This document shows, piece after piece, positions 9,460 through 35,635 of a stretch of DNA of 64,000 nucleotides. The position numbers and the translations under genes were made by a program. Under the pieces are notes generated by a model. The model saw only the letters and a list, made by a program, of their open reading frames with translations, ran no database searches and was not told the DNA's origin. The DNA lies in the NCBI RefSeq assembly GCF_035084215.1, contig NC_090340.1:14136001-14200000 (forward strand). Direction: 5' to 3'. This DNA comes from Heptranchias perlo (lineage: Eukaryota). The first letter of the stretch is position 1; each line of letters opens with the position of its first letter.

Positions 9460-9464
9460 CTTAC

Positions 9465-9649: not shown

Positions 9650-9654
9650 CTGGA

Positions 9655-12380: not shown

Positions 12381-12639
12381 GATTCCAACGTAGATGACTG
12401 TTTACAGCTGAAAGGAAGACAGGAGGATGTCAGTTCAGCTAGAATCACACACCACGCAAACATGTTGAGAATTAATTACCAACAGAAAACAAAAACAATT
12501 TTAGCAAAGGCAGAATTTTCTTTGCTTTCTCTATCCTGGAACTCCCTCCTCTCCTTAAAAGCAGTGAATCGTGTGGAGATACATGTCCCAAAGCCCCACC
12601 TAACTGGCCATTCATGGAACATGCATGATCATGGGCTCT

Positions 12640-13247: not shown

Positions 13248-13641
13248 TTGGACAGCTGGCTACTCAATTGCAGTGAGGGAGGCATCACAGCAGGACCCGC
13301 TCCTACCCTCAGTTGACAGCCACATGCATTCACATTCCAGTAGGGGTCAGTGGATAGTGACAGTGAGCAGGGATCTTGCCTGCTTTTCCCCACTGCAACG
13401 GAGGCCAGCTCAGTAGTACACTTGCTAAGATCAGTTGACCACAGACCAAGGGTTGAACTTGGGATGCTTATGGATTATCCCACTTTAAGCTATGGAATCT
13501 CCCACTAGCACATTGGAGTCGGGGCTAGAGCAGACTACAATAATTTGCGATTTAGTATTTCTCAGACAGTACATCAAATGCGATGCACTAAATTGAGCCC
13601 ATCAGTTCCAGTGAGTCACCAAGTCTCTTGTCAACTTAATT

Positions 13642-13843
13642 ACAAATGTAAGGAATCTTACAACATCAGGTTATAGTCCAACAAATTTATTTTAAAATCA
13701 CAAGCTTTCGGAGATTATCCCCTTCGTCAGGTGACCTCCGAAAGCTTGTGATTTTAAAATAAATTTGTTGGACTATAACCTGGTGTTGTAAGATTCCTTA
13801 CATTTGTCCACCCCAGTCCATCACCGGCATCTCCACATCATGG
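13642..13843. mobile_element. Young Penelope-like terminal-repeat insertion arranged as a 72-bp inverted repeat
   Basis: Arms 13642-13713 and 13736-13807 with one mismatch; flanking direct repeat caacttaattaca at 13632-13644 and 13844-13856; related to the Penelope end near 36270. Confidence 0.8.
13698..13734 (-). ncRNA. Minimal type I hammerhead ribozyme motif (Penelope-type)
   Basis: Minus strand reads UCAC-CUGACGA-A-GGGGA-UAA-UCUCC-GAAA-GC-UU-GUGA, giving stem I, the catalytic core, stem II and a palindromic stem III. Confidence 0.7.
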
Positions 13844-14544
13844 CAACTTAATTACACGTTACGAAATCTCTTGTGGTGCTGCTCACAGCAACTCAGAGGA
13901 TGTCCCATTTTATAAGGGCATGACCACTGCAGCATATAGAACACAAATGAACTATTCGGATACCAAGATGGAGTTATAAATCCCTTAAAGGCTACAAACT
14001 CTAACTGATGTTAATTGACTTGTGTATGACCTTACTTAAGAGCTTGCAGATATTATGGCACTGGTATTTTCTACTGCCGTAGAAAAGACAGTACAGCACT
14101 CTCTCAGAAGGGCTCACCGTTATTTCAAGTCAAATGGAAGAGCAAGTTCCAGAGTGCGTACATGCGCGGTCAAATGCGGAAATCCAGAAATCGCTCTACC
14201 ATTTGCCCTGCTCGTTTGAAAGCTTCACGTTAAAGAAATCTCGCTGAGTGAATGAATGGACCAGCACGAACTTGCTAAACTGCCCAGCTGGAAACAATCT
14301 AATCTCTCCTTAAAAAAGGTACATTTGGTTTTTTTTAAGGTCTAAACTAACTTTTGACAGCGTGGTAAGTATTAATGACTACCAAACCGCCTCTCTGGCA
14401 CTGAAATTTAACTTTTAAAAATGTGGAGTCTCATTCCTCCCGATATTAATTGTTTTTGGGGACATTTTTTAAAAATTATTTTCCTTTAAAATTGTTACTT
14501 TTTAAAAACTTATTCTTTCTGTCACTTTTATTTCTGTCGTTTAA

Positions 14545-17500
14545 GAACATAAGTAGATAAGAAATAGGAGCAGGAATAGGCCATTTGGCCCCTTGAGCCT
14601 ACTTATTGAATGTTGGAGATCATGGCTGATCTTCGACCTCAACTCCACTTTCCCGTCTGATCCCCATATCCCTTGATTCCCCTAGAGCCCAAAAATCTAT
14701 CCATCTCAGCCTTGAATGTACTCAATGACTCAACATCCACAGCCCTTTGGGGTAGAGAATTCCAAAGATTCACAACCCTCTGCGTGAAGACATTCCTCCT
14801 CGTCTCAGTCTTAAATGGCCGACCCCTTAACTTGAGACTATGACCCGTAGTTCTTGACTCTCCAGTCAGGGGAAACAACCTCTCAGCATCTACCCTGTCC
14901 AGCGCCCCTCAGAATCTTATATGTTTCAATGTGATCACCTCTCATTCTTCTAAACTCCAGGGAGCATAGGCCCATTCTACTCAATCTCTCCTCATATGAC
15001 AACTCTCTCATCCCAGGAATCAATCTAGTAAACCTTCACTGCACTGCCTCTAAGGCAAGTATATATCCAAAACTGTGCATAGTACTCCAGGTGAGGTCTC
15101 ACCAAAGCCCTGTACAATTGTAGCAAGACTCCCTTACTCTTGCATTCCAACCCCTTGCAATAAAGGCCAATATGCCATTTGCCTTCCTAATTGCTTGTTG
15201 TACTATGCTAACTCTGAGTTTTTTCTATGAGGACATCCAAAATCTCTCTGAACACTAACATTTAATAGTTTCTCACCATTTCAAAAATATTCTGTTTTTC
15301 TATTTTTTCCAACCAAAGTGAATAACCTCACATTTCCCCACATTATACTCCATTTGCCATCTTCTTGCCCACTCACTTAACCTGTCTATATCCTTTTGCA
15401 GACTCTGTGTTCTCCTCACAGCTTACTTTCCCACCTAGCTTTGTACCGTCAGCAAACTTGGATGCATTACACTCAGTCCCTTCATCTAAGTCATTAATAT
15501 AGATTGTATATAGCTGAGGCCAAAGCACTGATTCTTGCATTAGTTACAGCCTGCCAACCTGAGAATGACTTGTTTATCCCTACTCTCTGTTGTCTGTCCT
15601 TTAACCAATCCTCTATCCACGCTAATATATTACCCCCAACCCCATGAGCCCTTACCTTGTGTAACAACCTTTTTTGTGGCGCCTTGTCGAATACCTTTTG
15701 AAAATCCAAATATACTACATCTACTGGTTCCCTTCATCTACCCTGCTAGTTACATCCTCAAAAAACTAATACATTTATCAAACACGATTTCCCTTCCATA
15801 AAACCATGTTGACTCTGCCTAATCATATGATTTTCTAAGTGCCCTGTTACCACTTCCTTAATAACGGATTCCAGCATTTTCCTGACAACTGATGTCAGGC
15901 TAACTGGCCTGTAGTTCTGTTTGCTCTCTCCCTCCTTTCTTGAATAGCGGGATCACATTTGCTACCTTCCAATCCACTGGGTCCGTTCCAGAATCTAGGG
16001 AATTTTGGAAGATCACAACCAATGCATCCACTATCTCTGCAGCCACCTCTTTTAGAACCCTGGGATGTAGGCCATCGGGTCCCAGGGATTTGTCCCATTA
16101 ATTTCTCTAGTACTTCTTCTCTACTGATAATTACTTTCTCTCATTAGTCCCTTGGTTCCCCACTATTTTTGGTAAGCATTTTGTGTCTTCTACTGTGAAG
16201 ACAGGTACAAAATATTTGCTTAACGTCTCTGCCATTTCCTTATTCCCCATTATAATTTCTCCTGGCTCAGCCTTTAAGGGACCAACATTTACTTTTGCTA
16301 CTCACTCCCTTTTTACATACTTGTAGAAGCTCTTACAAGCTGTTTTTATATTTCTTGCTAGTTTACTCTCTCATTCTATTTTCTCCCTCATCAATTTTTG
16401 GTCATCCTTTGCTGAATTTTAAAACTCTCCCAATCCTCAGGCTTACTACTCTTCTTGGCAACATTATAAGCCTCTTCTTTTAATCCAATACTATCCTTAA
16501 CTTCTTTAGTTAGCCACAGATAGATCACTTTTCCCGTGGAGTTTATTTCTCAATGGAACGTATGTTTGTTGAGAATATTGAAATATTTCTTTAAATGTTT
16601 GCCATTGCTTTTCAACCGTCATACCCTTTAATTTAATTTCCCAATCTACCTTAGCCAACTCACCTCTCACACCTGTGTAAACGGCTTTATTTAAGTTTAA
16701 GACTCTAGTTTCTGATTTCAATACCTCACTCTCAAACTCATTGTGAAATTCTATCATATTATGATCACTCTTCCCCAGAGAAAGACTATGAGATTACGAA
16801 TTAGTCAGATTACTAATCAACCCTGTCTCATTACACAAGGTCTAAATTACCTGTTCCCTGGTTGGTTCCGTAATGTACTGTTCTAGGAAACTGTCTCGAA
16901 TGCATTCCATGGACTCATCCTCCAGACTACCTTTGCCAATTTGATTTGCCCAGTCTATTTGAAGATTAAAGTCCCCCATGATTACTGCATTACCTTTGTT
17001 ACGAGCTCCTATTACTTCATGATTAATACTCTGTCCAATGGTATAGCTACTCCCACCAGTGTTTTCTGCCCTTTGTTATTTCTTATTTCCACCCAGACTG
17101 ATTCTACTTCCTGATCATCTGAGCCAAGGTCCTTTCTCACCACTGTCCTTATGTCACCCTTTATTATCAGGGCTTCCCCCCTCCTTTTCCATTCAGCCTG
17201 TCTTTTCGAAACATCAAGTACCCTGGAATATTTATTTACCAACCTTGTTCACCTTGCAACCACGTTTCTGTAATGGCTATAGATCAAACCCATTTATCTC
17301 TATTTGTGCCACTAATTCGTCGATCTTGTTACAAATGCTTCATGCATTCAGATAAAGAGCCTTTAATTTTAACTTTTTAACCATTACTTCCTGCTTTGAC
17401 CTTATTCGTTGATGCACTATTTCCATTAAACTCTCTGTCCTTTCCTGTCACACTCTGCTTATCTTATCTTTACCCAAATTGTTGCACTGCTCTATTGCCT

Positions 17501-18080
17501 TGTCTTCTCTCTTTAGATTTCTAAATTTCCCTTCACCTGACCCCTCTCCCCACCCTTTTTAGTTTAAAAGCCCTATCTGCAGCTCTAGTTATTCAATTCC
17601 TCCCACACCACTCTTTGAGCCACGCATTTAACTCTCTGATCTGTTTGTCCCTATGCCAATTTGCGCGCGGCTCAGGTGGTAATTCAGAGATTATCACCTT
17701 TGAGGTTCTGCTTATTAAATTTAGATTCTAGCTCCTCAAACTCCCTCAGCAGAACCTCATTCTTAGTTCTACCTACGCGTTGGTTCCTACGTGGACAATG
17801 ACAACTGGATCCTCCCCCTCATGCTCCAAGTTCTTTGCCAGCCGCAAGGAGATATCCTTAACCCTGGCACTGGGCAGGTAACACAGCCTTCGGGACTCCC
17901 GCTTGCAGCTGCAGAGAACAGTATCTATCTTTCTGGCTATACTATCCCCATCACTACCACATTCCTTTTTACTCCCCCCACTTGAATGGCCCCCGGTGCC
18001 ATGGTCAGTTTGCCCATCCTCCCTGCAGTCCTTGTTCTCATCCATACAGGTCGCAAGTACCTCGTACCGGTTGGACAAGG
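14545..18080 (-). mobile_element. Long degraded CR1 LINE (ORF2 fragments plus an ORF1 esterase-like fragment)
   Basis: Fragments MDFQKVFDKAP, ESVWVEIRN and VVNLWNSLPQ; ORF1-like GDSIARKID...VHVGTN at 17773-18078. Confidence 0.9.
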
Positions 18081-21000
18081 TCTTTTTAATCTTGCCCTCT
18101 TTTTATTTTGCTTTCTTTAACTGATTTTATAGTGAATTTACTAATCTGTCTGATACTTCCTGGTTCTTAGTCTGCGTGGCTTGTGAAGGAGGCTTCGAGC
18201 TGATTGGTCGAGGGGAGCGAGAGCTCCTTTCCTTGCTCTCACAGCTCAGAGTAGCCTGGGAATGAACGCTGCACTTCTTGCAGGTCTCCATTGAGGCACG
18301 TTGGCATCCAGAAACTCGCGAAAGATTTGTGGGTGTGTTAATTACTTATGAGTGGCAGGCGACGTTCGTTCGCCGCTCAGCGCAATTTCCGGGCCATTGT
18401 GTCCAAGTTTCTGGAGTGGGACTTGAACCCACAACTTTCTGACTCAGAGGCAAGGCCACCACCTTCGATAAATAGTTGAAGCATTACAGCATATTAAAAA
18501 AAAATAGCCCCTGTAAAAATATGTTGGTACTCCATATATCCAGCACTTAAACCAATTAACTCCTTAGAAATGCTTCAGCAGACACTGATTTGAGTCAATC
18601 ACTCATCGTGCCCAGTTTTTGCTGGCGTATGAGCATGTAATCACAAATTAATAACACATTTATAGTCGCAGGAGGCTAACAGACTGAGTGAGGTTCAGGA
18701 ACAGAAAAATGATTTGACTCTGACTACAAAAATCAATTGCAATGATTCTCACAGATGACTGTACTTTAAATGCAAGTAGAGTTTTCTCTTGCCATTGTTC
18801 CCAATACATTGGCAGAGCAATTGGAAGATGTCCATCTTCCATTTTCAGGACCGTATACTGGTATTCGTTGGCACTGTAAAGGCTGATTTTTTTTTTTTAC
18901 AAGACCAGATGTCAACCAATCAATTTTATGTAGGCAATTACTGATTCAAGCAACCAACAGCCGAGACTGAGGCCATCTTCATCCGATATGCACAAACACT
19001 TTACAGCAGCAATCACCAGACAGCGACAGCGATCAGGAGCAGGATCCCTGGTCAGTTTTACACTTGGTAAACGAGAGACATAGAGGCCAATTGTTGTACA
19101 CCTTCATCCCCTGCCCAAACAGCAAACTCAACACAGACATAGGATCGGACCAGAGACCTTCCCGGCTGTGTGGGTCAGCTACCCACTTCAACTCAGAGCT
19201 GGGGAAGTGGGGAGGTTTCCCTGGAACTTGTTTTGTTTTTAAAATGCACAATTGGAAATTGAGCCAATTTCCAGTTCTCATTTCGAACAGAAAACTTTCA
19301 GAGGGACGTTTCATATGATTGCTGATCTCGATGGTTATTGAGTCTCCCAGGTTTATACAGGCTCTCAGGAAGTTTAAAATCTATAAACTTAATCATACCC
19401 CTCCCCATTTTGAATAGACATAAGTAAAACAAAGATAAGCAGGAAAGAATATAGAGCTACCCTCCAACTTTACAGAATTCAGGAGGAAAAATAGGAGTTA
19501 AAAAACTGAGAATTTAGACCTGGTTACCCCATTCGACTTTCAAAAAACATTGAAAGAGAGAGATGTAATTTTTTTTAAAAAATAAGTCTGATTTTTTTGT
19601 CCTCCCAAACCTTACATATAAAAACATTTTATTAAACCACTGGACACTTCTGAATGCACAGTGCACACAACCGGATAGTACAATGGGCACGTTGCTACGA
19701 CTGTACACACAGTGGAAGCAATGTTTTAGATTCACAAGTCTGCATTTTAACCCACTACTTCTTAAAGAAAAAGAGTTATGTCGTAGAGATAAATAATTTT
19801 AAGATAATTGACAAGACTAATGTAAACTTGTTCATCTTACAACACAAGATAACCTGCATAGTTTGACAATTGAAGATGCAGTATTTAAGGGATTAAAAGA
19901 CTAAGAAGTACAGCAAGGGTTTAAAGGCTAGGAAATATTTTAAAAATTTACTTTAATGTTGCATGATTTCTAACACTTAAACACCCATATAAGATTTTAA
20001 AATACAGTACAGATAAGCCCAAAGAGTATTTTTTAAATGTTTTTTTAAACATTACTAGCTGATTTCCCGAGGCAATGCTCAGAGATAGTCTGGAGCACGG
20101 TCATGATGTTTAGCTGTTAAGATGGAGCTGTGTTTAACCTGGCCTGTCTTTAAGGGCACGACTCAGATACTCCCTGTGGGAAATTAGGATAATTGATAAG
20201 GGGAGTTTCTGCATATTTATAGTTGCTTGTAAATCTCCAGCTTCTGCCTTTGAGGAGAGGCTAAGTTGTCAAGGTCAGAAAGATCAGCGGGAAATGGTTG
20301 ACTCCCTATGTCCATTTTGAAAATGATATTTTGTTAAAGTGTGACATACAAAGTGTGTTGGACGTGTGTTAGATGAACTGTGGGGGGGAAAAAAAGACTG
20401 AGCAGCGCAATTACAGATTATGTCTTTCCAAATTTGGGTTGTGTCTGGAAAGAACTTTTTGAGCAATACAACACAAAAGTGAAGTATTGGTGGCTATAGA
20501 TCCACCACAGGCAGTAGGAATGGGCTCCTTATGGGAAGAGAGAGAGAGAGAGAAGAATGGATATTACCTACAACCTGAGGGGCATATTTGGTCCACAAGC
20601 CTAGGCACAGCACCGGTGTCCACTCAGTTTCTCTGATTTTTTAATCTTATGCTGCACGGTTCAGTTCGTCTGCTTGAATTTGGCAGGGCTGGCAATTTGA
20701 ACAGGTCTGTTCTCAGCACTCATAGGTTGGTTCAGGATTTATCTACCAATGAAGATGCAGCGCAAAGAACAGCACTTTCAACTTGCCAGTCCTACCAAAT
20801 TCCAGCAGTTGAACCCTGCAGCACTGAAAAAAGGAAATCAAAAACAAAGCAGCAAATTCAAACAGTTACTTTGCAACTTACCTTTGGGTGTGGGCTTTTA
20901 TATGCTCTTAACTACAATTGGTTAATTTAAGTCCAATGTCAAGAAGCTGGGGAGGATGAGTACCTTTGTGTGTATTTCACAATCACATAAAATTTTAATT

Positions 21001-21537
21001 TAGCTAAAGATGGTTAGCAACGGCTTTAGAACCAGATCACAAGATCATTACAGATGAGGAGGGCCAGCCAGATTGACCCTATGGCAGGATCAACAATGAT
21101 GCAGGCAACGAAAACAAAAAGAAAATCTAGGCCTTCCTGCAATGAAGACCTACATTCATATTTAAAAAGTTTGGGGGGGGGTACATAAAAAAATTACCCT
21201 GCACACAATATGCCAAAATACACAATAATAAAAATGATCCATTTCCCCATCCACAAAAAAGTTACTGTCACTTTATCGTGAAGCCAGGCCTCCCTTTAAT
21301 CCTGTAATTCAGGTGCATTATCAGCTCCACTTCTCCATTTTGTTTTGCAAAATCTACACAGAACCATTAACTAAGAGCAGGTGAATGCAATCCAGCATTG
21401 CTGAGTGTGGAATCCCATGCCAATGTATAGATTCGCATTAAAGGCAGAGGCAAAGGTGTTTTCACATAAATACACGCATCAACTCCTGAAAAACAAATCA
21501 GATTTTTGTTTTAAAACTATAAAAGTATTTCGCTTAC

Positions 21538-21960
21538 CTGTTCAGACTTCAGTCCCTAAAGTGTTATTCCCAAGTCAACTATGCGTTGAAAGAGGTGATC
21601 CGTCCAATCTATTCCTTCAGTGCGATTCTAACTCATGGTTGCATTACTGCACGGCAAAGGCTTCAAATCCTTCAAACGAAGACCCAAAGTTTAGTTTATA
21701 TTCACCCGGAGATCCTACAAACTGGTAGAACCAGCAACAATTCCCCAGGCTCTGAGAGAGAAAGCACTCTGACACCATCCCATCCGGGTTATCAACACAC
21801 CTGAGCCAGGTAAATGATCAGATTGTCCACAGACTGAAGGACAAGCTTTACCCGTAATAAATAAAGCTAAATCCCAAATACTTTGTGTCACTGCAATTTT
21901 TGTTTGTATGCTTTTCACTTGTGCAAACTCAACTCAACTCAAATCCCCCTTTATCCGGCA
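21538..21960 (-). other. Candidate untranslated first exon of AHR
   Basis: Strong donor cag|gtaagc at 21537, just downstream of the CpG island on the minus strand; the 5' end is uncertain. Confidence 0.5.
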
Positions 21961-22500
21961 AACTCCGCTCCATCGCATCCGAAGCGCCTGTCCGCCGCCC
22001 CTGAGTCTTTCTTGTCAATCAACCAGGTTCACAGGTTCCGATTGGCTGCAGCTTGGCCTTGGATCCCGCCCCCTCGCTAGGCTCCTCCCCCCTCCCACAC
22101 AGTGCTGGCGCCCAGTTACAGCGCCACGCCGCGGCCGTTAGTGAAATAGCAGGGGTAGCGCGCAAAGCCTTCCGGGTAGTGTAGTTCTCGCCGAACCTTC
22201 CTGGAAAGAAGCGCCTCCCGCCGAACTGCAACTCCCAGAGTACACTGGGGGGGGGGGCGCTAAGCGCATGCGCGTAAAGAATCCCTTTTCAAATCGATGG
22301 CGGCGAGGTAGGTGCTGAGGAACCTGAGGTGTGCGAGGGTCGGAAAGAGTAGTGACCGTGGCTCCGCGCCCGGGAGTTCTGTCTAACGGCTTGTTTCGAG
22401 GGTGTAGTCGGGCCGGGGCCCGGTACTGGTTACCGGGGAGCTGTGTGAGGCCGCTCGCTCGCGCCAATCAGTAGCCTCAGGCAGAGCCCGCGCAAGGTTG
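21950..22500. promoter_or_regulatory. CpG-island promoter, probably bidirectional
   Basis: CpG-dense. Reverse CCAAT 22041, GC box 22065, ETS-like cttccgg 22169, ZNF143-like aactgcaactcccaga 22224, NRF1 palindrome gcgcatgcgc 22264-22273, pyrimidine initiator cccttttc 22283, YY1-like gatggcgg 22296, CCAAT near 22463. Confidence 0.85.
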
Positions 22501-23040
22501 AGCCTTCATGAGGAGCAATGTGCTGGGCCTGGGGCTTCCTCAGGGAAAATTCACTGCGAATGTTGTCATTCAGCAGAAGTAGCACCACTGCAGTTGTAGG
22601 TGCACCTTTCTTAATCCGTGCCGGGGGAGAGATGGGGGGGGGGGTGAAAAACTACCAGAGTCGGTCAGTTCAATGGGTCGATTGCATTGCCCAGCGTGGA
22701 GTATGAGCCGTTCAGATTACAACGGTCTCGGGTTCCATCCCTGATTGTGCCGAGCTAATTGCTCTCATCTGGGGAAGCGGTAGGAGAGTTACAATTGGCC
22801 TCAGCACAACCAGATTCAGAAAGGGGGGAATATCAGGCACCCGATCACTGTCCAGGGGACCCTGCTGGAAGGCTGTATGTGTGGGCATCCAATGAGGACA
22901 GGAGGGTTGCTTGTGGAACCGAACCCATAATTTTGCTGAAAGACCGATCAGGAGCTTTGAAGCTTGTTTTTGAGGGATGGGGGAAGCATGTTAACCAGGG
23001 GAGGGAGAATTCACAGGCACATGCAATGATGGTTGGAGGT

Positions 23041-23215
23041 ACATAGGAACAGGAGTAGGCCATTCAGCCCCTAGTGCCTGCTCCGCCATTAGATAAGATC
23101 ATGGCTGATCTGTGATCTAACTCCATATACCCGCCTTTGGCCCATATCCCTTAATACCTTTGATTGCCAAAAAGCTATCCATCTCAGATTTAAATTTAGC
23201 AATTGAGCTGGTATC
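23041..23215 (-). mobile_element. CR1 3' tail fragment
   Basis: acataggaacaggagtaggccattcagccc is the reverse complement of the CR1 3' end seen near 56740. Confidence 0.75.
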
Positions 23216-23459
23216 AATGGCTGGAAATTAATGTTGAGCAGAATTTTGGGATCACAGCAAAAATACTAATTTATAAGAATAAATGACTTTCTTGGGCAAA
23301 ATATTTTTAATTTTTTGGTATTAATTTTGTACACACTGGAAGCAATTTTTCAACCTCGGAGTAAAATTCCTGTCTGCTATTTTGTTTATATGCTGAATTT
23401 TAACTAATTCATTGGAGACAGAAGTTTCATCTCTTGGAAATATCCTTTTTTCTTCCCTG

Positions 23460-23535
23460 CTTCTGTGATGAGTAATGTTTGGCATGTATTATCTGAACAG
23501 CCAGTGAAGAGCATTAAAATGATTACTCTGAGAGC
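23460..23535 (+). ncRNA. Box C/D snoRNA, SNORD45-like, copy 1
   Basis: C box GTGATGA 23465; D' CTGA preceded by TTGGCATGTATTA, antisense to 18S UAAUACAUGCC; C'-like GTGAAGA; D box CTGA 23528; terminal stem gctt/gagc. Confidence 0.85.
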
Positions 23536-23844
23536 TTGGGATATTCCTTTCCATTTTGTTGAATCTGTTCACAGGTAGTTTATCTGAGCAGTAAGTGTTT
23601 AAGCACTACAAGTACATGTTTCTTGCTGATGTTTTGTTTTGTCGCTGGGTCAAAATCCTGGAACTCCCTACCTAACAGCACTGTGGGAGAACCTTCACCA
23701 CATGGACTGCAGCGGTTCAAGAAGGCGGCTCACCACCATCTTCTCAAGGGCAATTAGGGATGAGCAATAAATGTTGGCCTTGCCAGCGATGCCCACATCC
23801 AACGAATAAAAAAAATATAGAAATGTAGAATTTTACAGCACAAA

Positions 23845-24290
23845 AAAGAAAGAAACTTGAATTTATATAGCGCCTTTCACGATCTCAGGGCGTCCCAAAG
23901 CACTTAACACATGCTCACTGTTATAATAGATGTAGGAAACTGGGCAGCCAATTTGTGCACCGCAAGGTCCCACAAACGGCAATGAGGTAAACGACCAGAT
24001 CATCTATTTTAGATGTTGGTTGAGGGATAAATGTTGGCCAGGACACCGAGAGAACTTCCCTGCTCTTCGAATAGTGCCATGGGCTCTTTTACATCCTCCT
24101 GAGAGGGCAGAAGACCCCCTTGGTTTTATGTCTTATCTGAAAGACGATACCTCCGGTAGTGCAGCACTCCCTCAGTATTGCAATGGAGCGCCAGCCTACA
24201 TTACGTACTCAAGTCTCTGGAGTGGGGCTTGAACCCTCAACTTTTTGACTCCAAGGCAAACATGCTACCACTGAGCCAAAGCTGACACTG
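23845..24290 (-). mobile_element. Deu-domain SINE
   Basis: Reverse complement of the 732-1195 family. Confidence 0.8.
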
Positions 24291-24789
24291 CAGAACGAGG
24301 CCTTTCCCCCACTGTGCCTGCCCAGGCTCTCTGAAAGAGCTTTCTGTTCAGTCCCTGCCCTTTTCCCATACCCTTTAAAATTTGCCTTTTTCAAATATTT
24401 ACCAGTAACTGTTTAAAAGCAATTATGGATTCTATGCTGCTGCTGTTTCTGGTGGGGCATTCCATATCTTAATGCTCTACACAAAGAAATTCCCCATACC
24501 TCCTCCTTTTGTTCTTTTGGTGATGACCTTAAATTTATGCCATCTAGTTACTGACTGTGCAGTGGAAATCTTAGCAAAGCTCCTCATAATTACTTGCTGC
24601 CTATTTTATGAATGTACTGAAGAAATATTTAAAAGCTTTCAAAATGTAGTACAGGTTTCTATTTTTCTTAACCTTTACCCAATTGAATATATGGGGCTTT
24701 GTAGGATTGAGTGTATCAAGTACTGTGATATGTTTAATGGGGGATTGTCAACCAATTTAGGGCAGGATAGGGCTCAGTGTTATTTTTGC

Positions 24790-25185
24790 TGGTGATCACA
24801 TCACTCCTCTCACCTCTGAATCAGAAGGTTGTATTCTAGGACTGGAGCACATAATCTAGACAGGCACTCGGTGCAGTACTGAGTAAGCGCTGCATTTCTG
24901 GAGGTGAGACATTAAACTGAGGCCGTATCTGCCTGTTCAAGTGGCTCAGATGGACATTAAAGATCCCGTGACATTATTCAAAAAAGTGCGGGGAGTTATC
25001 CTGGTGTCTGGCCGTCAAAACGGATCAACAATCCATTCATTTCATTAGTATTTGAGACCTTGCTGTGTCAAAATATCTGCAATATTTGCTTTCATAAAAA
25101 CAATCACTGCTTTTCAAGGTAATTGATTGTACGTCGAGCACACAGAGACGTCTGAGACATGAGGCGTTGTGTGAATGTAAGTCAC
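24790..25185 (+). mobile_element. Old Deu-domain SINE duplicated with the tandem unit (other copies about 28310-28630 and 31850-32170)
   Basis: SINE head and tail occur at the same place in all three units. Confidence 0.7.
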
Positions 25186-25827
25186 GCACCATTTCAGCAT
25201 ACCATTTATGATGTGAAGGCTGTCATTGTGTTGATACACAGAGAGATCAAAACCTTTCCCAGTAACTTTCCATGGGTGTTTGATGTTCTTTTAAAGAAGG
25301 TTTCACTAACAGTACCCTTCCAGCCCAAACATCGGACTATTCCTAAGATGTCTCACTAACCTTTAATATCCTTTTATTGTTCTGAACAGTGGGCAGTGGT
25401 GACCTCATTTAAGAGAACGGTTGGGAGAAGTTACTTAGTCTCACCATGTGAAGATGCTTGTTTGAAATAAAGAATCAGTGGATAATCGTGATATCTATTG
25501 ATGTTTAAGGAGTGAGGAGAGACACACAGTGACAAGGTACAATACTGTCTGTATTCTTGGAACTTTATGTTGAGCAACAGTTGGCAATCTTGACAAACCA
25601 GAATAAATAGCCGTAGTTATTTCGTACACATAACATGATGGGGTTTAACTTCCGAGATACACTGATTAATTGCTTCAAAATACTTGTTAAAAAACACTTG
25701 ACAGGTTAATGACTGCATTAAAATACGACACAAAGGAAAATGTAATTATTTAAATGTTGAATTTTTTTGCTGTTTGCGTAAAGCTTTTAAATCTGAACCC
25801 TGGAAGTACTCTCTTTCTCCACCCCCC

Positions 25828-25904
25828 GCTCCTGTGATGAGTAATGTTTGGCATGTATTATCTGAACAGCCATTGAAGAGCATTAAACAGATTACTCTGA
25901 GAGC
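25828..25904 (+). ncRNA. Box C/D snoRNA, SNORD45-like, copy 2
   Basis: C box 25834, intact Um172 guide, D box 25897, terminal stem gctc/gagc. Confidence 0.85.
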
Positions 25905-27113
25905 TTGGGATGTTATTTTACATTTCTTTGAATCGGTTCTGATCTACAGTCTAAGAGTAGTCTGTGTGTCCATGTAGCTGTAGTTAGAAGTTTTTAATAC
26001 CTGTGGTAGCCACTTTGTTAGCCCACTTGACCATGTAACTGAAAGCTCTCAATTCACCAACTCACACCATAAGTGTCAGCTTTACAACAGTGAGTACTTT
26101 AAGTGGGTCATCGCCTGTTTGGAGCAGGGTGATTTTTTTTGTTAAATCTTGGGTACGGTAGCGTAATGGTTATGTTACTGGACTAGTAATCCAGAGGCCT
26201 GAATTAATAATAATAATTAATAATAATCAAATCCCACCAGGGCAGTTTGAGAATTTGAATTTAGTTTTTTAAAAAGCTGGTACCAGTAAAAGTGACCATG
26301 AAGTTATTGGTTCACTAATGTTCTTTAGGGAAGGAAACCAGCCGTTCTTACCCGGTCTGGCCTACATGTGACTCCAGCCCCACACCAATAAGGTTGACTC
26401 TCAATTGCCCTCTGAAGTGGCCTAGCAAGCCACTCGGGGCAACTTGGGATCGACAATGAATTCCAGCCTTGCCAGAAATGCCCACATCCTGAGAATAATT
26501 TTTTTTAAATTATGGCATTGCTGGCAAGTGTCAGTGTTTTTCTGGAGCTTTGTTTGTGTTGCTAGTGTTGTCATTTTTGATAAGGAACTGGATAAAAACA
26601 TTCCGAATAACTCACTGTAGATGTTTATTTCCTTTAAAGGTGTTTTGCCAACACTGTTCTTTCTATATAAAAATATCAGACTAATCGTTTAACTTTCACA
26701 TCCTTTTGTTTTATTCCTGTCTCTCTTTGATCAGTGTGTGCTGATGACATCGTTGAGGGATGAGCCAGGATAATACTGAGGCCAATCACGGGAAGATGAC
26801 GACTTTAAATCAAATGCCCACAGTTAAAAACGACATCAGTTTCTGTTTACGGAGCAATGTTTGAGGCACGTTCAGCCCACGGAGGCAGCGATTTGCGGAG
26901 GTACGTTGTGTCCAAGTTTGGAACTTAATGTTAAGCAGCTGGTACAATCATGGCAAATTATTAGATTGCATAATTAAATTAGTGAACTTTTTTTTACAAA
27001 TAATATGCAATGTTTTTTTATAATAAACAAGATAGAATCATTCTCGTGGCTATTTCTAATTATATAAACTGCACAATTTTCAGTTTGATTGCTGGAAATG
27101 TCCTCTTCCCTCA

Positions 27114-27191
27114 GGTTCTGTGATGAGTAATGTGTGGCAAGTAGAATCTGAGTGGCCAGTGAAGGTTATTAAAGTCTTTACTCTCAGAACT
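27114..27191 (+). ncRNA. Divergent C/D snoRNA copy 3 (altered guide, D box CTCA)
   Basis: C box 27120, guide TGTGGCAAGTAGAAT before D' CTGA, CTCA at the D-box position 27183. Confidence 0.6.
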
Positions 27192-27906
27192 TGGGATATT
27201 CCTGTACATTTGCTGAATCAGTTCACTGATCCTCATATTTGGACAGTGGAAGTTTTTATAATGATGGAAATACTTGATCCTGATACTTGTACTAGCCTAC
27301 TTTGTTAACTCTGCCACATAACTTACAGCTGTACAAATGACGGAAGTTTCAGGGTTTTCTGTTCACCTTTTCCCTGCTGAATATACAGCCCCACAGGGTT
27401 GAATATAGCAGGTGTCACCAACTTGGAGCAGGAAAGAATCTTTAAAAAACCCAACGTCCTTTTCATTGGTGAATCATACAAGTCTCGGTACAATATTTTT
27501 CTAATGCTGTGATATTTGAGACCTGAATGGTGTCACCGAGAGGCTCTCCAAAGAAAGGGTTTGCACAGCAATATCCCTTGTGTCAAAATCCAACTGAACA
27601 AATTCTCACACAACTTCAACTTCTTTTGGTTTGAACAGTGCCCTCTGGCGATGTCATTGGAGATCACCGTGTGAAGATATCCAGTGAAATGAAGCATCAA
27701 AGGTTAAGAATTACATTGATTAGTGTTAAAGGAAGCATAAAGAGCCTAAAGGGAATGATGGGCACAAGCAGTGACTGTAGATTTGAAACCAGCGCTGAAC
27801 AACGTTTAAAACCATGGCAAGACTAACAAGCGCAGGTATTTTACTTGTTTAAAAAAATGTATTTTTTCATAGCTTGTTGTAAAAATGATGTTCATTTCTC
27901 CAACCT

Positions 27907-27983
27907 GGTTTTTTGATGAGTAATGTTTGGCATGTATTAACTGAACAGCCAGTGAAGGGCATTAAATTTATTATTCTGAGACC
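27907..27983 (+). ncRNA. Box C/D snoRNA, SNORD45-like, copy 4
   Basis: C box TTGATGA 27913, intact guide, D box 27976, terminal stem ggtt/gacc. Confidence 0.8.
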
Positions 27984-29365
27984 ATCGGATGTTTCCTTCC
28001 ATTTTGTAGAATCTGTTAACAGGCCGTATTATCCTGGACAGTAAATGTATTTATAACGCTGCAAGTACAGTGTGTCTAATAACGTTGTAAGTGGAGGGTT
28101 TTATTATGATTAGTGCCCATTTTGTTAATTTACTAAAAATAAATTCTAAAAGCTTTCAAATGTACCAAAGCGTTCTGTTTCTCTTAACCATCACCCTATG
28201 GAGCATATGGGGCTTCGTTGAAATTGAGCACACGAAAAATTGTAATGTGTTCTTTAAAGGGGAATTGTCAACAGTTTAGATCAGGATAGGGCCCAATGTC
28301 ATTTTTGTTGGTGATCTCATCACTCCTCTCATCTGAGGCAGAAGGTTGTGGGTTCTAGCTCCATTCCAAGACTGGAGCACATAATCTAGACTGACGCTTC
28401 AGTGCAGCACTGAGGAGTGATCTTGGTGTTTGGCCACACTGGTCTCTCAATGGGTGCTGTTAAAAAAGATCAACTGGCCAATCATATCGTTGGTGTTTGA
28501 GATCTTCCTGTGTCAAAAGGGCTGCCCTATTTGCCTACATAACAGTCACTGTTCTTCAAAGTAATTGATTGTACGTCGAGCACATGGACACGTCTCTGAG
28601 ACATGTGGCGTTGTGTAAATGTGAGTCATGCATCATTTCAGCATACTAGTTATGATGTGATGGCTGTCATTGTGTTGATACACAGATGGGTCAAAACCTG
28701 TCCCAAAAACTTTCCATGGGTGTTTTGTGTTACTTTAAAGAAGGAGTTTTGCTAACAGTATCCCTCCAGCCCAACAATCAGGACTAATCCAAAGACATCT
28801 CACTAATCTTTAATGTCTTTTAAGTCTCTGAACAGTGCACCATGCCGATCTCATTTAAGGGACTGCTTGGAAGGAGTTATTTAATCCCACTGTGAAGGTG
28901 GTGAAAATGCTTGTTTGAAATGAAGAATCGATGGATAATCATGGGGCCCATTGATGTCTAAGGAGCGAAGAGAGGGTACACACAGTGACTTGAGGTACAA
29001 TGCTGTCTGTATTCTTGGAACTTTATGTTGAGCAACAGTTTACAATCTTGGCAAAACCGTAACCTGCCAGAATAAATAGCTGTAATTATTTCATGTGCAC
29101 AACATGATGGGGTTTAACTTCTGTGATACACTGGATAACATGTTTGTGTACAATTCCAATGTGTGCTATCTTAGAGTAACCAATTTGCTGGTTAACTGCT
29201 TCAAAATACCTGTTAAAATGCACTTGACAGTTTAATGACTGCATTAAAATACTACACAAAGAAAAATGTAATTATATGAATCTTGATTTTTTTTTTTTGC
29301 TGCTTGTGTAAAACTAGGTTTTTAAATCTGATCCCTGGAAGTGCTCTCTTTCTCCTCCTCTCCCT

Positions 29366-29442
29366 GCTTCTGTGATGAGTAACATTTGGCATGTATTATC
29401 TGAACAGCCATTGAAGAGCATTAAACTGATTACTCTGAGAGC
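29366..29442 (+). ncRNA. Box C/D snoRNA, SNORD45-like, copy 5
   Basis: C box 29372, intact guide, D box 29435. Confidence 0.85.
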
Positions 29443-30642
29443 TTGGGATATTATTCTACATTTTGCTGAATCGGTTCTGATCTACAGTCTAAGGGTAGTC
29501 TTATGTGTCCACATAGCTGTAGGTAGAAGTTTTTAACACCTGTGGTGGCCATTTTGTTAGCCCACTTGCCCATGTAACTGAAAGCTCTCAACTCACAGTT
29601 TTACAATAGCTGCATTGGTGAGTATTTTAAGTGGGTCATCGACTACTTGGAGCGGGATGATTTTTGTTAAATCTTGGGTATAGTAGCATAGAGGTTATGT
29701 TAATGGACTAGTAATCCAGAGGCCTGGATTAATAATAATAATGAGTTAAGATCCCACCAGAGCAGTTTGAGAATTTGAATTTAGTTTTTTTTTTAAATCT
29801 GGAAATAAAGTGCTGGTACCTGCAAAAGTGACCATGAAGCTCTCCTATAGTGAACCCGCCATCTTTACCCGGTCGGGCCTATAATGACTCCAGCCCCACA
29901 CCAATGCGGTTGACACTCAACTGCCCTCTGAAGTGGCCTAGCAAGCCACTCAGGGCAACAAGGGATAGACAATGGATGCTGGCCTTGCCAGAAATGCCCA
30001 CACCCCGAGAATGAATAATTTTTTTCAAAAATTGTGATATTGCTGGCAAGCACAGTGTGATATTTTTCTGGAGCTTTGTTTGTGTTGCTAGTGTTGTCAT
30101 TTTTGATAAGGAACTGGATAAAAGCATTCCGAATAACTCAATGTCTATGTTTATTTCCTTATAAAGGTGTTTTGCCAACACTGTTCTTTATAAAAATATC
30201 AGACTAATCGTTTAACTTTCATATCCTTTTGTTTTATTCCTGTCTCTCTTTGATCAGTGTGTGCTGATGACATCGTTGAGGGATGAGCCAGGATAATACT
30301 GAGGCCAATCACGGGAAGATGACGACTTTAAATCAAATGCCCACAGTTAAAAACGACATCAGTTTCTGTTTACGGAGCAATGTTTGAGGCACGTTCAGCC
30401 CACGGAGGCAGCGATTTGCGGAGGTACGTTGTGTCCAAGTTTGGAACTTAATGTTAAGCAGCTGGTACAATCATGGCAAATTGTTAGCTTGCATAATTAA
30501 TTAGTGAACCATTTTTTTTTACAAGTAATGTGCAATATTTTTCTTTATAATTAACAAGATAGAATCATTCTCGTGGCTATTTCTAATTATATAAACTATG
30601 CACAATTTTCAATTTGATTGCTGGAAATGTCCTCTTCCCTCA

Positions 30643-30720
30643 GGTTCTGTGATGAGTAATGTGTGGCAAGTAGAATCTGAGTGGCCAGTGAAGGTTATTA
30701 AAGTCTTTACTCTCAGAACT
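30643..30720 (+). ncRNA. Divergent C/D snoRNA copy 6 (same as copy 3)
   Basis: C box 30649, altered guide, CTCA at 30712. Confidence 0.6.
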
Positions 30721-31460
30721 TGGGTATTCCTGTACATTTGCTGAATCAGTTCACTGATCCTCATATTGGACAGTGGAAGTTTTTATAATGATGGAAATAC
30801 TTGGTTCTGATACCTGTGCTAGTCTACTTTGTTAACTCTGCCACATAACTGAAAGTTTTAGGGTTTTCTTTTGGCCTTTTATCCTGCTGAGTATACAGCC
30901 CTAAAGGGTTGAGTGTGGTAGATATTGGTACATGTCACCAAATTGGAGCAGGAAAGAACCTTTAAAAAGCCCCAGTGTCCTTTTCATTGGTGAATCATAC
31001 AAGTCTCGGTACAATATTTTTCTAATGCTGTGATATTTGAGACCTGAATGGTGTCACCGAGAGGCTCTCCAAAGAAAGGGTTTGCACAGCAATATCCCTT
31101 GTGTCAAAATCCAACTGAACAAATTCTCACACAACTTCAACTTCTTTTGGTTTGAACAGTGCCCTCTGGCGACGTCATTGGAGATTGGTTGGGAGGAGGT
31201 TCTGAAGATACCCTGTGAAGAAAACCAGTTGAAATGAAGCATCAAAAGTTACATTGATTAGTGTTAAAGGAACCATGTGAGAAGCATAAAAAGACTAGAG
31301 TGAATGATGGGCGGTGACTGTAGATTTGAAACTAGTGCTGAACAATGTTTAAAACCATGGCAAGACTAACAAGCGCAGGTATTTTACTTGTTTAAAAAAA
31401 ACAATGTATTTTTTCATAGCTTGTTGCAAAAATGATGTTCATTTCTCCAATCTGATTCCT

Positions 31461-31537
31461 GGTTCTGTGATGAGTAATGTTTGGCATGTATTAACTGAAC
31501 AGCCAGTGAAGTGCATTAAATTGATTATTCTGAGACC
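31461..31537 (+). ncRNA. Box C/D snoRNA, SNORD45-like, copy 7
   Basis: C box 31467, intact guide, D box 31530, terminal stem ggtt/gacc. Confidence 0.85.
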
Positions 31538-32894
31538 GTAGGATGTTACCTTCCGTTTTGTAGAATCTGTTCACTGGTCGTATTATCCTAGACAGTAAAT
31601 GTATTTATAATGCTGCAAGTACAATGTGTCTAATAACATTGTATGTGGAGGTATTTAATATTTATACTGCCTATTTTGTTAATATACTAAAAAGAGTTAA
31701 AAGCTCTCAAGTGTAGTATAGCTTTCTGTTTCTCTTAACCTTCACCCTACTGACACTTTGTTGAAATTGAGCACACGAAAAATTGTAATGTGTTCTTTAA
31801 AGGGGAATTGTCAACAATTTAGATCAGGATAGGGCCCAATGTCATTTTTGTTGGTGATCTCATCACTCCTCTCATCTGAGGCAGAAGGTTGTGGGTTCCA
31901 GCTCCATTCCAGGACTGGAGCACATAATCTAGACTGACGCTTCAGTGCAGCACTGAGGAGTGATCTTGGTGTTTGGCCACACTGGTCTCTCAGTGGGTGC
32001 CGTTAAAAAAGATCAATAGGCCAATCATATCGTTGGTGTTTGAGATCTTCCTGTGTCAAAAGGGCTGCCCTATTTGCCTACATAACAGTCACTGTTCTTC
32101 AAAGTAATTGATTGTATGTCGAGCACATGGACACGTCTCTGAGACATGTGGCGTTGTGTAAATGTGAGTCATGCATCATTTCAGCATACTAGTTATGATG
32201 TGATGGCTGTCATTGTGTTGATACACAGATGGGTCAAAACCTGTCCCAAAAACTTTCCATGGGTGTTTTATGTTCCTTTAAAGAAGGAGTTTTGCTAACA
32301 GTACCCCTCCAGCCCAACAATCGGGACTAATCCAAAGATGTCTTGCTAATCTTTAATGTCCTGTTATATCTCTGAACAGTGTACCATGCCGATCTCGTTA
32401 AGAGACTGCTTGGGAGGAGTTACTTAGTTCCCACCGTGTGACAGTGGTGAAGATGCTTGTTTGAAATGAAGAATCGATGGATGGTAATGGGACCCATTGC
32501 TGATTAAGGAGCTAATGTGAGACGCGCACACAGAGACTTGAGGTACAATACTGTCTGTATTCTTGGAACTTTATATTGAGCAACAGTTTGCAATCTTGGC
32601 AAAGCAATAACCTGCCAGAATAACTAGCAGTAGTTATTTCGTGTACACATTACATGGGTTAATTACTTCAGTTATTGCACTAGTTAACGCATTCAAGAAG
32701 TTATGCAGTTAACAGGCTAATTGCATTAAATACCTGTTGACGAGTAATGACTATTAAAATACTGTACAAAGGATTTTGGTCTACTGCGCTTTTTAGGAAT
32801 GATTATATCTATTTAGATATAATTGTTGCTTTTTGTGTAAAACTAGATTTTATCTATCCTGGGAAGTGCCCTCTTTTCCCCTCCCCTGTGCCCT

Positions 32895-32972
32895 GGTTCG
32901 GTGATGAGTAATGTTTGGCATGTATTATCTGAACAACCAGTGAGGAACATTTAAAATAACTACTCTGAGAGC
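32895..32972 (+). ncRNA. Box C/D snoRNA, SNORD45-like, copy 8
   Basis: C box 32901, intact guide, D box 32965. Confidence 0.8.
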
Positions 32973-35196
32973 TTGGGATCTTCCTTTACGTTTTGCTGAT
33001 TCCATTTACATGTCATCATGTATGGGCAGGGAAGGTGTTTATAATACCCTTATAGTGGTTCTTAAATATCTGCAGCTCCATTTCCTCAGCCTGCTTGACC
33101 ACATAACCATAATGTGCTGTAGGTCTTGGTTTTCAACCTATAGTCTGCTGGATATATAAAACCTTCATGGGGTTGAGCAATGTCGCTGTGGCTCTTTTGT
33201 GAAGCTGATTGGCACAGTGGGTGAGACATTCATCTCTGGACCTCTGTATTGAAGACAGTTGGTGTTGATTGCATTTACATTAAACAGTGGTGTCAGTGAA
33301 AAGGGGCTTGTTTTTGATTGTGCTCACATGTTGGAATGCAAACCTGGAGTCTCCGCAGCAGGGAGCCTCATTCCACTTCTCTGCAGCAAGAGCTTGGGCC
33401 CTGAATCCAGGATTTACATAGCAACTTCTTTGTGTTGACGTGAAGTTAAACTGCTTTGCACTGATGCTACAGAAGCAGAGTAAATGGAGCCACTAATGCA
33501 GGAAAGCTTTCCTCCTAGCTCTCCTATAGCTTTATGGGCCCAGGTGAAATGGCTTTGGGCAGTTTTGAATCCGGTCTTTTGAATGTGTATTCATAGTGTA
33601 AAGCTACATTGGAGCCACCCCCACCCCCGACCCCCCCCCCCCCGATCAGCTGAAATTTTACAGGATGGTGTCTCATAGCACAGATTTTGTTTGTATTTGT
33701 TCATCTTTTCTTGGTGAATTAACTAACAATGTTTTGTAATTTTTTTGTATTCCTGTACTGAGGGTATTGCTGGACTGTGTGTGTAAGACCAAAATTTGAG
33801 GTCTGAATTATCCAGCAGTTTCCATTGTCCACCCATGGGGAGTGGGCTTTAGATGACAGATAATGGATGTTCAGTCCTACCCATAAATGCAGAAGAAACT
33901 TCCACTAAATTGATCTTGTTCGGAGAGGTCGTCTTTGTTGAATCAAGTTGTTGGGGCAAATTAAGGGATTGTGTGTCAGGTTGACTGTCTGAATTGGTGG
34001 AACTTATTTCTAACACTGTACCATGCCATCTCCACTTCATGGTGCTTTCACCAGCTGACAGTACCCAGCTTGCCTCCAGTACATAGGGCAGGAACGAATG
34101 GGTACAAATACACTTGAGGCCAGTCATCGGATAACTGCGCTGTGTGATTTGGCACTAAGCCACACAGACCTAGAATATCCTGGGATTGACCCCTGGACTG
34201 TGCGGAGTCCAGCTGGACAAATAGTTTATCTTCCTGGCAGCTTGGTAGAGAACAATTCAGCCATTTAAGTATTTTGCAATTTGGCACAGGAACTCTTGCC
34301 TATTTTCTGGGGGGAGAAAGAGTACATGTTCAGAATATTCGCATTTTCATTTGACAGGATACTTTACTTATTGTGAAATTTGTTTCAGCTGCTGAGGATC
34401 TCAGAACCTGCCACTCACAAGCAAGGCCGTCACTCACTGTCTTCAGATACAACATTCTGTCCCAACTCCAGATGTTTTCCACACCCTGCGACCAGGGTCC
34501 ACAGGTCTGAAGAGGCTTCCGGTCCCATTATAGAGCAGGAACATGGGTTAAGCAATCCACGCGCTGACTCAGTCACCTGAAAGACTGCCCCGCTGACTAA
34601 TGTTTGGTAGGCTGCTGAGAGGAAAGATCTGAAAAAGAAGCCCCTTGGTGGCTCTACAGAATATGTCTGACCCGAAATCCTTGGAGTAAATGTCAGTGTT
34701 GTCTCGCTACGCGAGAGGCCTCCTGCTGGGAGGAGTTTTGTGGGTTACTTTTAGGTCCTGTGGGCCCATTGCTCAAGGAAAATGTTGTGACTGTTAAACA
34801 AACACTGTGAGACCCAGATATCCACGATACATATATGAAGGTTTATTAAGCATAAGCCAACGTGAACAATAGCACAATAACAAGCGATCAAAGAGGTACA
34901 TTTACAATCGAGACGTCTGAAGAGATTCTAGAGGCACCATGCGGACAACCAGTGCACCCATGTGGGTGAATCCTCAAACGGAGGCCCAAAAAAAGCCCAA
35001 GGTTGGATTTATAATCTGGCTGCAAGCCAATTAGAGCATGCATGTGCTGCACCTCTCTGACTTTCTCAATTTTGCTGGGTTCGTGCCCACAACCTTCTGA
35101 CCTTCCCAACTCTTGTCTGTGTCCCAATCTAGAATCTTAATTACATTTAGACCATGTGAGAAAGTAGTAACTGATAATATTGTGTAATGTATGTAA

Positions 35197-35206
35197 AATA
35201 AATAAA
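35197..35206 (+). terminator. Candidate polyadenylation signal of the host gene
   Basis: Overlapping AATAAATAAA followed by GT-rich sequence. Confidence 0.5.
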
Positions 35207-35635
35207 TTTATATCTGTTAAAACTGACTTGTGTTGAAGATGTAGCATCAGAGTCTGCCTGACCTTAGCAGTCTCTCCCTTCGAAAGGAATCATGCCACAG
35301 GATACTGATTTCACAAAACAGCTTCTCACTTACCCGAGATTAAAAATCTCTAGCCATGCGATTTGAATTGTTGGGAGACCAGCAGTTTTTTGTGTCAGTC
35401 CCAGAGAGCTCTTAAAATTGCTCAGAGCTTTGAAGCAGGGAAATGGTGAGTTCGCTCTGAGAAGTCTGAAATGTAACGCTGCACAGAGTGGTCACAGCCT
35501 CTAGACATCTTTAGTATTCTAGTTTGACTGAGTTGCACATACTCTGCATTACAAGTGTATGCTAATGGAGGTAACCAGCCAGTTGCAGGCCCCTTCCACT
35601 TTTTTTTTTAAGAGGGAACAGTACAATATACATAA

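Follow-up and report, generated by a model that had tools for sequence, protein, structure and literature searches.

A predicted spliced host gene without a long ORF carries eight SNORD45-like C/D cassettes, two of them probably dead, in a shark

Mammalian SNORD45 is hosted in introns of RABGGTB, and the imprinted, brain-expressed SNORD115/116 arrays consist of repeated exon–intron units with one snoRNA each, as does the array described here. The SNORD115/116 arrays are presented in PMC3349704 as eutherian-only, with 30–50 copies, and SNORD116 is treated there as lacking a known target. In zebrafish, the lncRNA FP101887 is described as an apparently non-coding multi-exon host in which 9 of 10 intronic SNORDs form one related family, and SNORD45 is assigned to another host, si:dkey-239h2.3 (PMC7668251). 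In chicken, GGgCD5 (SNORD45) is placed in RABGGTB introns 1 and 2 (PMC2653536).

In the window (the whole 64,000-nt stretch of shark DNA analysed), eight C/D cassettes lie between positions 22283 and 35225, all where the original prediction had put them (Table 1). We consider it very probable that a spliced host without a long ORF carries one SNORD45-like cassette in each modelled intron, and that six of these likely guide methylation of 18S U169 while two are likely dead.

Table 1. Positions in the window of the array, its host gene and the neighbouring genes.
Feature	Position	Strand	Remarks
CpG island	22001..22750	.	GC 0.59–0.62, CpG obs/exp 0.82–0.87; likely bidirectional promoter, also serving the minus-strand AHR gene
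Exon 1, predicted	22283..22307	+	pyrimidine start (TCT/5'TOP-like), ATG of 7-codon ORF, donor GTAGGT
Cassette 1	23465..23531	+	D' guide 23479–23491, D' 23493, D 23528; C box, C'-like box; 28.3 bits Rfam
Exon 2, predicted	25390..25536	+	splice signals, homology; family E2/E5/E8
Tandem block duplication	25390..32542	+	E2..E5 vs E5..E8, 92.8% identical, 3498 aligned bases
Cassette 2	25834..25900	+	intact guide
Exon 3	26735..26900	+	contig depths; identical to exon 6
Cassette 3	27120..27186	+	guide 9/13, D box CTCA; probable pseudogene
Exon 4	27639..27835	+	family E4/E7; 212-nt contig in X1 and X2 equals predicted unitig
Cassette 4	27913..27979	+	intact guide; C box TTGATGA
Exon 5	28825..28994	+	229-nt contig with 2 gap letters vs 227 predicted
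Cassette 5	29372..29438	+	intact guide
Exon 6	30258..30423	+	identical to exon 3; contigs
Cassette 6	30649..30715	+	core identical to cassette 3 core; probable pseudogene
Exon 7	31160..31378	+	234-nt contig in X1 and X2
Cassette 7	31467..31533	+	intact guide
Exon 8	32380..32542	+	190 loose letters of last-exon contig equal E7+E8 in length
Cassette 8	32901..32968	+	intact guide
Last exon (exon 9)	34389..35215	+	AATAAA 35197–35202; 3' end approximate
AHR-family gene	9462..21848	-	head-to-head with host; ATG exon 12407–12325, bHLH exon about 9649–9462
AHR gene, putative 5' UTR exon	21848–21538	-	minus-strand contig; predicted link to coding exons
Anillin-like gene, PH-domain exon	63719..63889	-	neighbour on other side of host

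Box C/D RNAs carry RUGAUGA (C) and CUGA (D) at their ends, an antisense element of 10–21 nt upstream of D or D', and a short terminal stem; they accumulate as small RNAs in complex with the core proteins and direct methylation. Measured from box C (TGATGA) through the last letter of box D, the cassettes span 66–67 nt; boxes C and D are canonical in copies 1, 2, 5, 7 and 8, copy 4 departs only in its first C-box letter, and copies 3 and 6 fail at box D (CTCA). The 18-mer of guide plus CTGA occurs six times with 0 mismatches, against a chance expectation of 0.23 even at ≤3 mismatches. A covariance model built from six of the eight cassettes recovers exactly these eight (69–121 bits), no other match in the 393 kb searched exceeding 19 bits; together with the exon model, in which each of eight introns holds one cassette, it bears out the predicted layout. 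A genome-wide DNA search with the cassettes returns eight matches, all of them the array itself, and neither this search nor sequence patterns find further copies in the genome; dispersed, strongly diverged copies elsewhere are possible, the genome-wide coverage being by DNA and pattern search only.

The terminal stem is paired in 90.5% of cells, compared with 17–69% when the register is slid. The compensatory change claimed for it, gct/agc to ggt/acc, does exist, but it concerns one of seven pairs and counts as a single event because copies 4 and 7 are sisters; covariation is not significant, an equal score arising in 103 of 500 shuffles, and copy 8 places two Gs opposite each other in this register. 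An extended outer stem is unsupported as a general feature, beating shuffles in three of eight copies, two of which are the presumed dead ones. Also counting against the main reading, the distance between cassette and first-pass 3' splice site is 445–1859 nt, above the median of 247 nt for snoRNAs in human lncRNA hosts.

The original prediction assigned the guide to all eight copies and its target to 18S U172 (human numbering). The target stands, and so does the guide in six copies, in which the D' element pairs 13/13 with 18S 166–178 of the shark's own genome, in both rDNA units read. Specifically, the +5 position of these guides is 18S U169, which corresponds to human U172 (A156/U169 in shark 18S equal A159/U172 in human), and the zebrafish SSU_172 entry lists an identical target string (PMC7668251). 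The six guide-intact cassettes thus likely direct 2'-O-methylation of U169. Three other exact guide matches in the genome (L044–L046) have no C box, and two of them lie inside an AT-rich tandem repeat. Of the A159 guide of amniote SNORD45, only 3–6 contiguous pairs are left in the array copies; pattern searches of the genome reveal neither a perfect intact A159 guide elsewhere (5 matches vs 12 in the control) nor a zebrafish-type D-box guide. Because the D-side guide has decayed, A156 would be expected either to lack methylation or to rely on a guide encoded at another place, and shark 18S is predicted to carry Um169 without Am156. In Xenopus, both methylations are absent and the RNA is not expressed, so the U172 site is dispensable in some vertebrates.

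In the 13 between-lineage pairs of guide-intact copies, cores are 85–96% and flanks 62–86% identical, which indicates from sequence comparison that these cores are under purifying selection. The expectation that all eight copies function fails for copies 3 and 6, which look decayed. With four guide changes, 9/13 pairs and the CTCA D box, both are probably dead, and in the 12 pairs that they form with the other six copies their cores are 74–79% identical, like their flanks. We think it unlikely that these copies are alive, as retargeted guides or as non-guide RNAs under selection. Both have kept box C, the following 7 nt and D' without change, their terminal and outer stems are the strongest of the array (z −3.1 and −2.5), and a contig of a second organism crosses copy 6; the altered D box and the equal identity in core and flanks nevertheless argue for decay. 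Additionally, the best rRNA pairing score of copies 3 and 6 is 7.4 compared with 13 for intact guides, leaving no target in rRNA, and of the 27 other, dispersed genomic sites that carry a perfect complement of 14 nt, none lies inside an Rfam family at gathering score; the comparison covers rRNA and perfect genomic complements.

SNORD45 (RF00279) is the top Rfam family for six of the eight cassettes, which score 22.1–28.3 bits against a gathering score of 42 bits; copies 3 and 6 give no match, and Rfam at gathering score returns none in the window. Pipelines that use this cut-off would therefore miss the array copies. Weak matches to SNORA12, SNORD64, SNORD50 and snoR117 (E 0.4–9) are taken as chance. 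A genome-wide RF00279 search, in which 69 of about 494,000 candidates were scored, gives six matches among them; copy 4 accounts for one, and the remaining five are without C box plus D box. In the best match among the candidates scored (L009, 32.8 bits) the guide is disrupted.

The SNORD45 identity originally proposed thus holds for the type of D' guide and the U172 target but not for the Rfam threshold or the A159 guide, and the array RNAs are best called SNORD45-like single-guide RNAs. The low score and the different host gene would also fit an independent Um172 guide that converged on the common target, and the zebrafish Um172 guide, placed at the D box in another layout, tells that alternative guides do arise. 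We find such convergence improbable, since the shark guide sits at D', the position that it has in chicken and in the Rfam consensus, and the D-side ATTAC-N-CTGA-GA of that consensus is retained exactly in copies 1, 2 and 5, where a stub pairing with 18S 153–158, around A156, is unexplained by a Um172 target alone.

The putative start, CCCTTTTC at 22283, has a TCT/5'TOP-like motif and lies inside the CpG island, where the pyrimidine initiator had been placed; the island also holds motifs that we take to be NRF1-, ZNF143- and YY1-like. Splice evidence comes from contigs of two runs of one sample, presumed to be RNA. Four of seven predicted unitigs are matched in length and loose ends among the contigs listed in X1, with contigs of 212, 229, 234 and 996 nt against 212, 227, 234 and 996 nt in the spliced model, and X2 shows the same four, the last one ending earlier on its 3' side. 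The contigs favour the exon 5 acceptor at 28825 over 28836, and only 28825 also yields the 996-nt contig. Last-exon contigs cover 34387–35192 (X1) and 34405–35174 (X4 and X5). This length arithmetic supports splicing at the exon 3 to exon 9 junctions; exons 1 and 2 have no match among the contigs listed, and none of the 15 joints listed (443 more exist) is a host GT..AG junction. The longest ATG ORF in the 2078-nt spliced model is 45 aa, so that a spliced non-coding host, as originally proposed, is borne out. Its short exons fall into repeated families, again as anticipated; both genome matches of exon 3/6, considered as a dispersed repeat, are this locus.

Growth of the array by exon–intron duplication is supported by the exon families, the block identity and a tree of cassettes that pairs c2/c5, c3/c6 and c4/c7 with support 100/100. 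Exon 2, together with the 3' portion of intron 1, represents an older copy, at 81% identity. Single exon–intron duplications produced several cassette lineages before a three-intron block was duplicated, and these events copied live and dead cassettes alike. It is barely credible that the assembly created the 3.5-kb block by placing two haplotypes in tandem, with about five real cassettes. Although patches are 98–100% identical, exons 3 and 6 are the same, and contigs cannot phase across identical exons, the block is 92.8% identical overall with stretches of 84–90%, and contigs of organism A show 0–5 letter differences per 170–800 against the assembly. Moreover, a single run contains exons 4, 5, 7 and 8, all with comparable depths (48–91), and organism B likewise carries a duplicated intron segment in two versions.

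We propose that Pol II starts at the pyrimidine initiator in the CpG island. The pre-mRNA is spliced, as supported for exon 3 to exon 9. By established C/D biogenesis, the introns would then be debranched and trimmed to RNAs of about 75–80 nt guarded by C/D core proteins. On the +5 rule, fibrillarin would act on the nucleotide that faces position −5 of box D' in the duplex. The spliced transcript, with a first ORF of 7 codons in the model, may be an NMD-prone by-product.

The array had been called relocated, and SNORD45 is indeed not present in the shark's own RABGGTB (on C9), covered from CpG island to last exon by patterns and covariance model. A direction of movement is unsupported, because SNORD45 lies in RABGGTB in chicken and in a third host in zebrafish, while Xenopus does not express the RNA. 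The lineage specificity originally proposed is conjectural, the comparison covering partial contigs of a second organism. On the far side of the array, all eight relatives of the anillin-like exon are shark proteins, which bears out the shark assignment. We hold it very unlikely that the following are jointly true: that the snoRNA-only shark host with its AHR bidirectional promoter is ancestral and was lost in bony vertebrates, the RABGGTB site of birds and mammals being derived; that a six-fold dose is tied to AHR-locus activity; and that copy 3/6 is a newly retargeted RNA. The locus adds a cartilaginous-fish data point on snoRNA host turnover, with a U172 guide in three hosts (shark, zebrafish and chicken) and unexpressed in Xenopus, and snoRNA birth, the duplication of a block, the loss of guides and the decay of copies can all be read from one 13-kb stretch.

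No mechanism involved is new, and the arrangement is already known from zebrafish. With SNORD45/U45 the array shares the D' guide for U172, the box layout and the ATTAC-N-CTGA-GA 3' end; it differs in lying below the Rfam cut-off, in an A159 guide of at most 6 contiguous pairs, in a non-coding host beside AHR rather than RABGGTB, and in having 8 copies rather than 2–3. Zebrafish SNORD45, as listed in PMC7668251, likewise targets 18S U172 from outside RABGGTB, with A159 unmethylated, but guides from box D instead of D', has one copy in the minimal list and uses another host. Hosts of the gas5-like/SNHG type are also non-coding and spliced, with intronic C/D RNAs, and cis-duplication is described as driving expansion (PMC2653536); gas5 carries many snoRNA families there, whereas the array host carries one. 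SNORD115/116, to whose architecture the array had been likened, is not the nearest model: it differs in having tens of copies, not 8, and no known rRNA target, where the array has a canonical, perfect 18S target. On this comparison we judge the closest precedent to be FP101887, which, as described, has related rRNA-guiding SNORDs in its introns, some with one degenerate guide, and was missed by annotation. FP101887 carries SNORD52/202 with 28S targets and mostly double guides, whereas in the shark array a block of three introns has visibly been duplicated and two copies are probable pseudogenes.

As the original prediction had placed them, eight related SNORD45-like C/D cassettes (c1 to c8) lie on the plus strand, each measuring 66–67 nt when counted from the TGATGA of box C through box D; the D′ box is located 27 nt past the start of this TGATGA. 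The array in its non-coding host is real and probably functional. Specifically, the predicted 18-letter pattern of guide plus D′, for which 0.23 matches are expected by chance with three mismatches allowed, is exact in six of the eight copies but not in c3 and c6, which share one core letter for letter, with four guide changes and a D box reading CTCA. A covariance model trained on the six intact copies recovers all eight cassettes at 69–121 bits and gives no other match above 19 bits in the 393 kb scanned, which include 100 kb on either side and the RABGGTB region. Additionally, a whole-genome DNA search with the cassettes returned no copies beyond the eight.

Coordinates of the array, its surroundings and related places in the shark genome (G000; C, its contigs; L, excerpts from it; plain numbers are window positions)
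Feature	Position	Strand	Remark
AHR-family gene, ATG	12380	minus	in an internal exon
AHR-family gene, transcribed piece	21848-21538	minus	left of the CpG island
CpG island, probable promoter	22001-22750		ZNF143-, NRF1- and YY1-like motifs
Host gene, exon 1 to last exon	22283-35215	plus	exon model
Eight cassettes	23465-32968	plus	
Exon 3 variants	26786, 26799		collapsed contig letters differ from the assembly
Exon 5 acceptors	28823-28836		two, 11 nt apart; contigs favour the upstream one
Exon 6 variants	30309, 30322		collapsed contig letters differ from the assembly
Anillin-like gene	right of host		8/8 relatives of one exon are shark proteins
Open frame, 809 codons	36832-39261	plus	resembles LINE reverse transcriptase (translation judged by eye)
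Tandem repeat in AHR gene region (L052)	G000:C18 ~14,089,700-14,091,000		perfect 28-nt unit, ~1.3 kb; scores as a CpG island
RABGGTB	G000:C9:1322000-1347800		covered from CpG island to last exon
Inverted repeats in RABGGTB introns	L035:5293-5441, 7114-7215		two, long, near-perfect; probably transposon-derived hairpins
Best RF00279 score genome-wide	L009:1501-1566 (G000:C3)		32.8 bits, best of the 69 candidates scored
AT-rich tandem repeats on small contigs	L045 (G000:C186), L046 (G000:C878)		one exact guide+CTGA word each; no box C

In Rfam the cassettes have no match at the gathering score; at a relaxed threshold SNORD45 is the top family for six of the eight, which score 22–28 bits where the cut-off is 42. 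The D′ guide forms 13 of 13 pairs with the shark's own 18S rRNA (positions 166–178, identical in both rDNA units read). By the +5 rule the predicted target is U169, in agreement with the proposed human U172: in a Xenopus table, A156/U169 correspond to human A159/U172 (PMC6984369), and zebrafish U172 has the same target string as the shark (PMC7668251). The D side of amniote SNORD45 guides A159 (PMC2653536), a site at which just 3–6 contiguous pairs are left in the cassettes. The ATTAC-N-CTGA-GA of the Rfam SNORD45 consensus is kept in c1, c2 and c5, and this D-side remnant is probably a vestige and the main sign that the cassettes truly descend from SNORD45. When the genome was searched by pattern for an A159 guide still intact, 5 places matched versus 12 for a reversed control; none of the 5 has the perfect form and none belongs to an Rfam family. 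The sequence with the best RF00279 score is similar to amniote SNORD45 in its D′ half, letters after D′ included; its guide is broken, it has neither C box nor D box, and it is either a chance match or an old pseudogene.

The guide is unchanged across four independent guide-intact lineages (c1, c2/5, c4/7 and c8), whose 13 between-lineage pairs are 85–96% identical in the core and 62–86% in the flanks, whereas c3/6 compared with the other six copies (12 pairs) are 74–79% identical in the core and 61–79% in the flanks. Such figures fit six copies under purifying selection and two in decay. Contrary to decay, however, c3/6 retain D′ as well as box C with the 7 nt behind it, and their outer stems are the best of the eight. 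In the terminal stem 90.5% of cells are paired; the compensatory change claimed for it is present, but it amounts to a single pair, equalled by 103 of 500 shuffles.

The proposed growth by exon-intron duplication is upheld by exon families, block identities and a tree. Exons 2/5/8 and exons 4/7 form two homologous families that are mutually related, the assembly gives exon 3 the same sequence as exon 6, E2 to E5 is 92.8% identical to E5 to E8, and intron 4 with exon 5 is matched at 81% by exon 2 together with the 3′ part of intron 1. In the tree, c2 joins c5, c3 joins c6 and c4 joins c7, each at 100/100, with deeper branching not resolved. We therefore infer that single exon-intron duplications preceded those of blocks. 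A haplotype artefact is disfavoured by the 7% overall divergence, versus 0–5 differences per organism A contig. The variant positions in exons 3 and 6 are the same in organism A and in organism B of a second study, with no contig carrying the assembly letter, a hint that one exon copy has recently converted the other.

Transcript evidence comes from four of the eight runs listed, used as contigs, which we guess to be RNA although none is recorded as such. Among the 15 joints listed, which interspersed repeats dominate, none is a host junction. The geometry of the contigs is more telling: we compared them with the seven pieces expected from 31-mer unitigs of the predicted spliced RNA. Four of these pieces (212, 227, 234 and 996 nt) correspond to listed contigs of run X1 that are 212, 229 (2 of them gap letters), 234 and 996 nt long and have loose ends (15, 27+30, 15 and 190 letters) where intron would have aligned. 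X2, a second run of that sample, repeats the three short contigs and has a last-exon contig of 912 nt bearing the same 190 loose letters. The match depends on placing the exon 5 acceptor at 28825 instead of 28836, a post hoc choice made after the data were seen, which also corrects the last predicted piece from 995 to 996 nt; exons 2 and 8, paralogs of exon 5, are modelled at the downstream acceptor position. The other three pieces (198, 181 and 33 nt) are absent among the contigs listed, so that exons 1–2 are predictions only. In organism B, exon-covering contigs have depths of 46–143 versus 5–23 for intronic ones, among the contigs listed, and contigs span the sites of c5, c6 and c8. The model RNA of 2078 nt has a first ORF of 7 codons and a longest of 45, which agrees with a non-coding host.

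The AHR-family gene apparently stands head-to-head with the snoRNA host, and many shorter LINE-reverse-transcriptase-like fragments are scattered across the window. RABGGTB of this genome is without SNORD45 by Rfam, fuzzy pattern and the six-copy covariance model, and its introns contain no Rfam snoRNA at E up to 2. In contrast, chicken RABGGTB carries U45, complete with both guides, in introns 1 and 2 (PMC2653536). In Xenopus tropicalis, SNORD45 is not expressed and both methylations are absent according to the supplement of PMC6984369, with no mention found in its main text. In zebrafish, a D-box guide in si:dkey-239h2.3 directs U172 methylation and Am159 is absent (PMC7668251), and one SNORD45 is predicted on chromosome 4 (PMC11880993).

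Cis-duplication is the usual route to snoRNA paralogs (PMC2653536), host turnover is frequent across vertebrates (PMC13736004), and C/D copies tend to be more numerous in non-mammalian vertebrates (PMC3349704). Most expressed C/D RNAs depend on terminal stems and lie at a greater distance from the branchpoint than is assumed to be optimal (PMC10234308). Three supplements of PMC3349704 contain no SNORD45 entry; its gene list and Makarova and Kramerov 2009 may cover other fish hosts. Our literature search turned up no paper that describes a SNORD45 locus in a shark. Every ingredient of the array has precedent, and the shark array is new in its locus, its host and its single-guide state; a close architectural match is the zebrafish lncRNA host FP101887, which carries ten SNORDs, nine of them related (PMC7668251).
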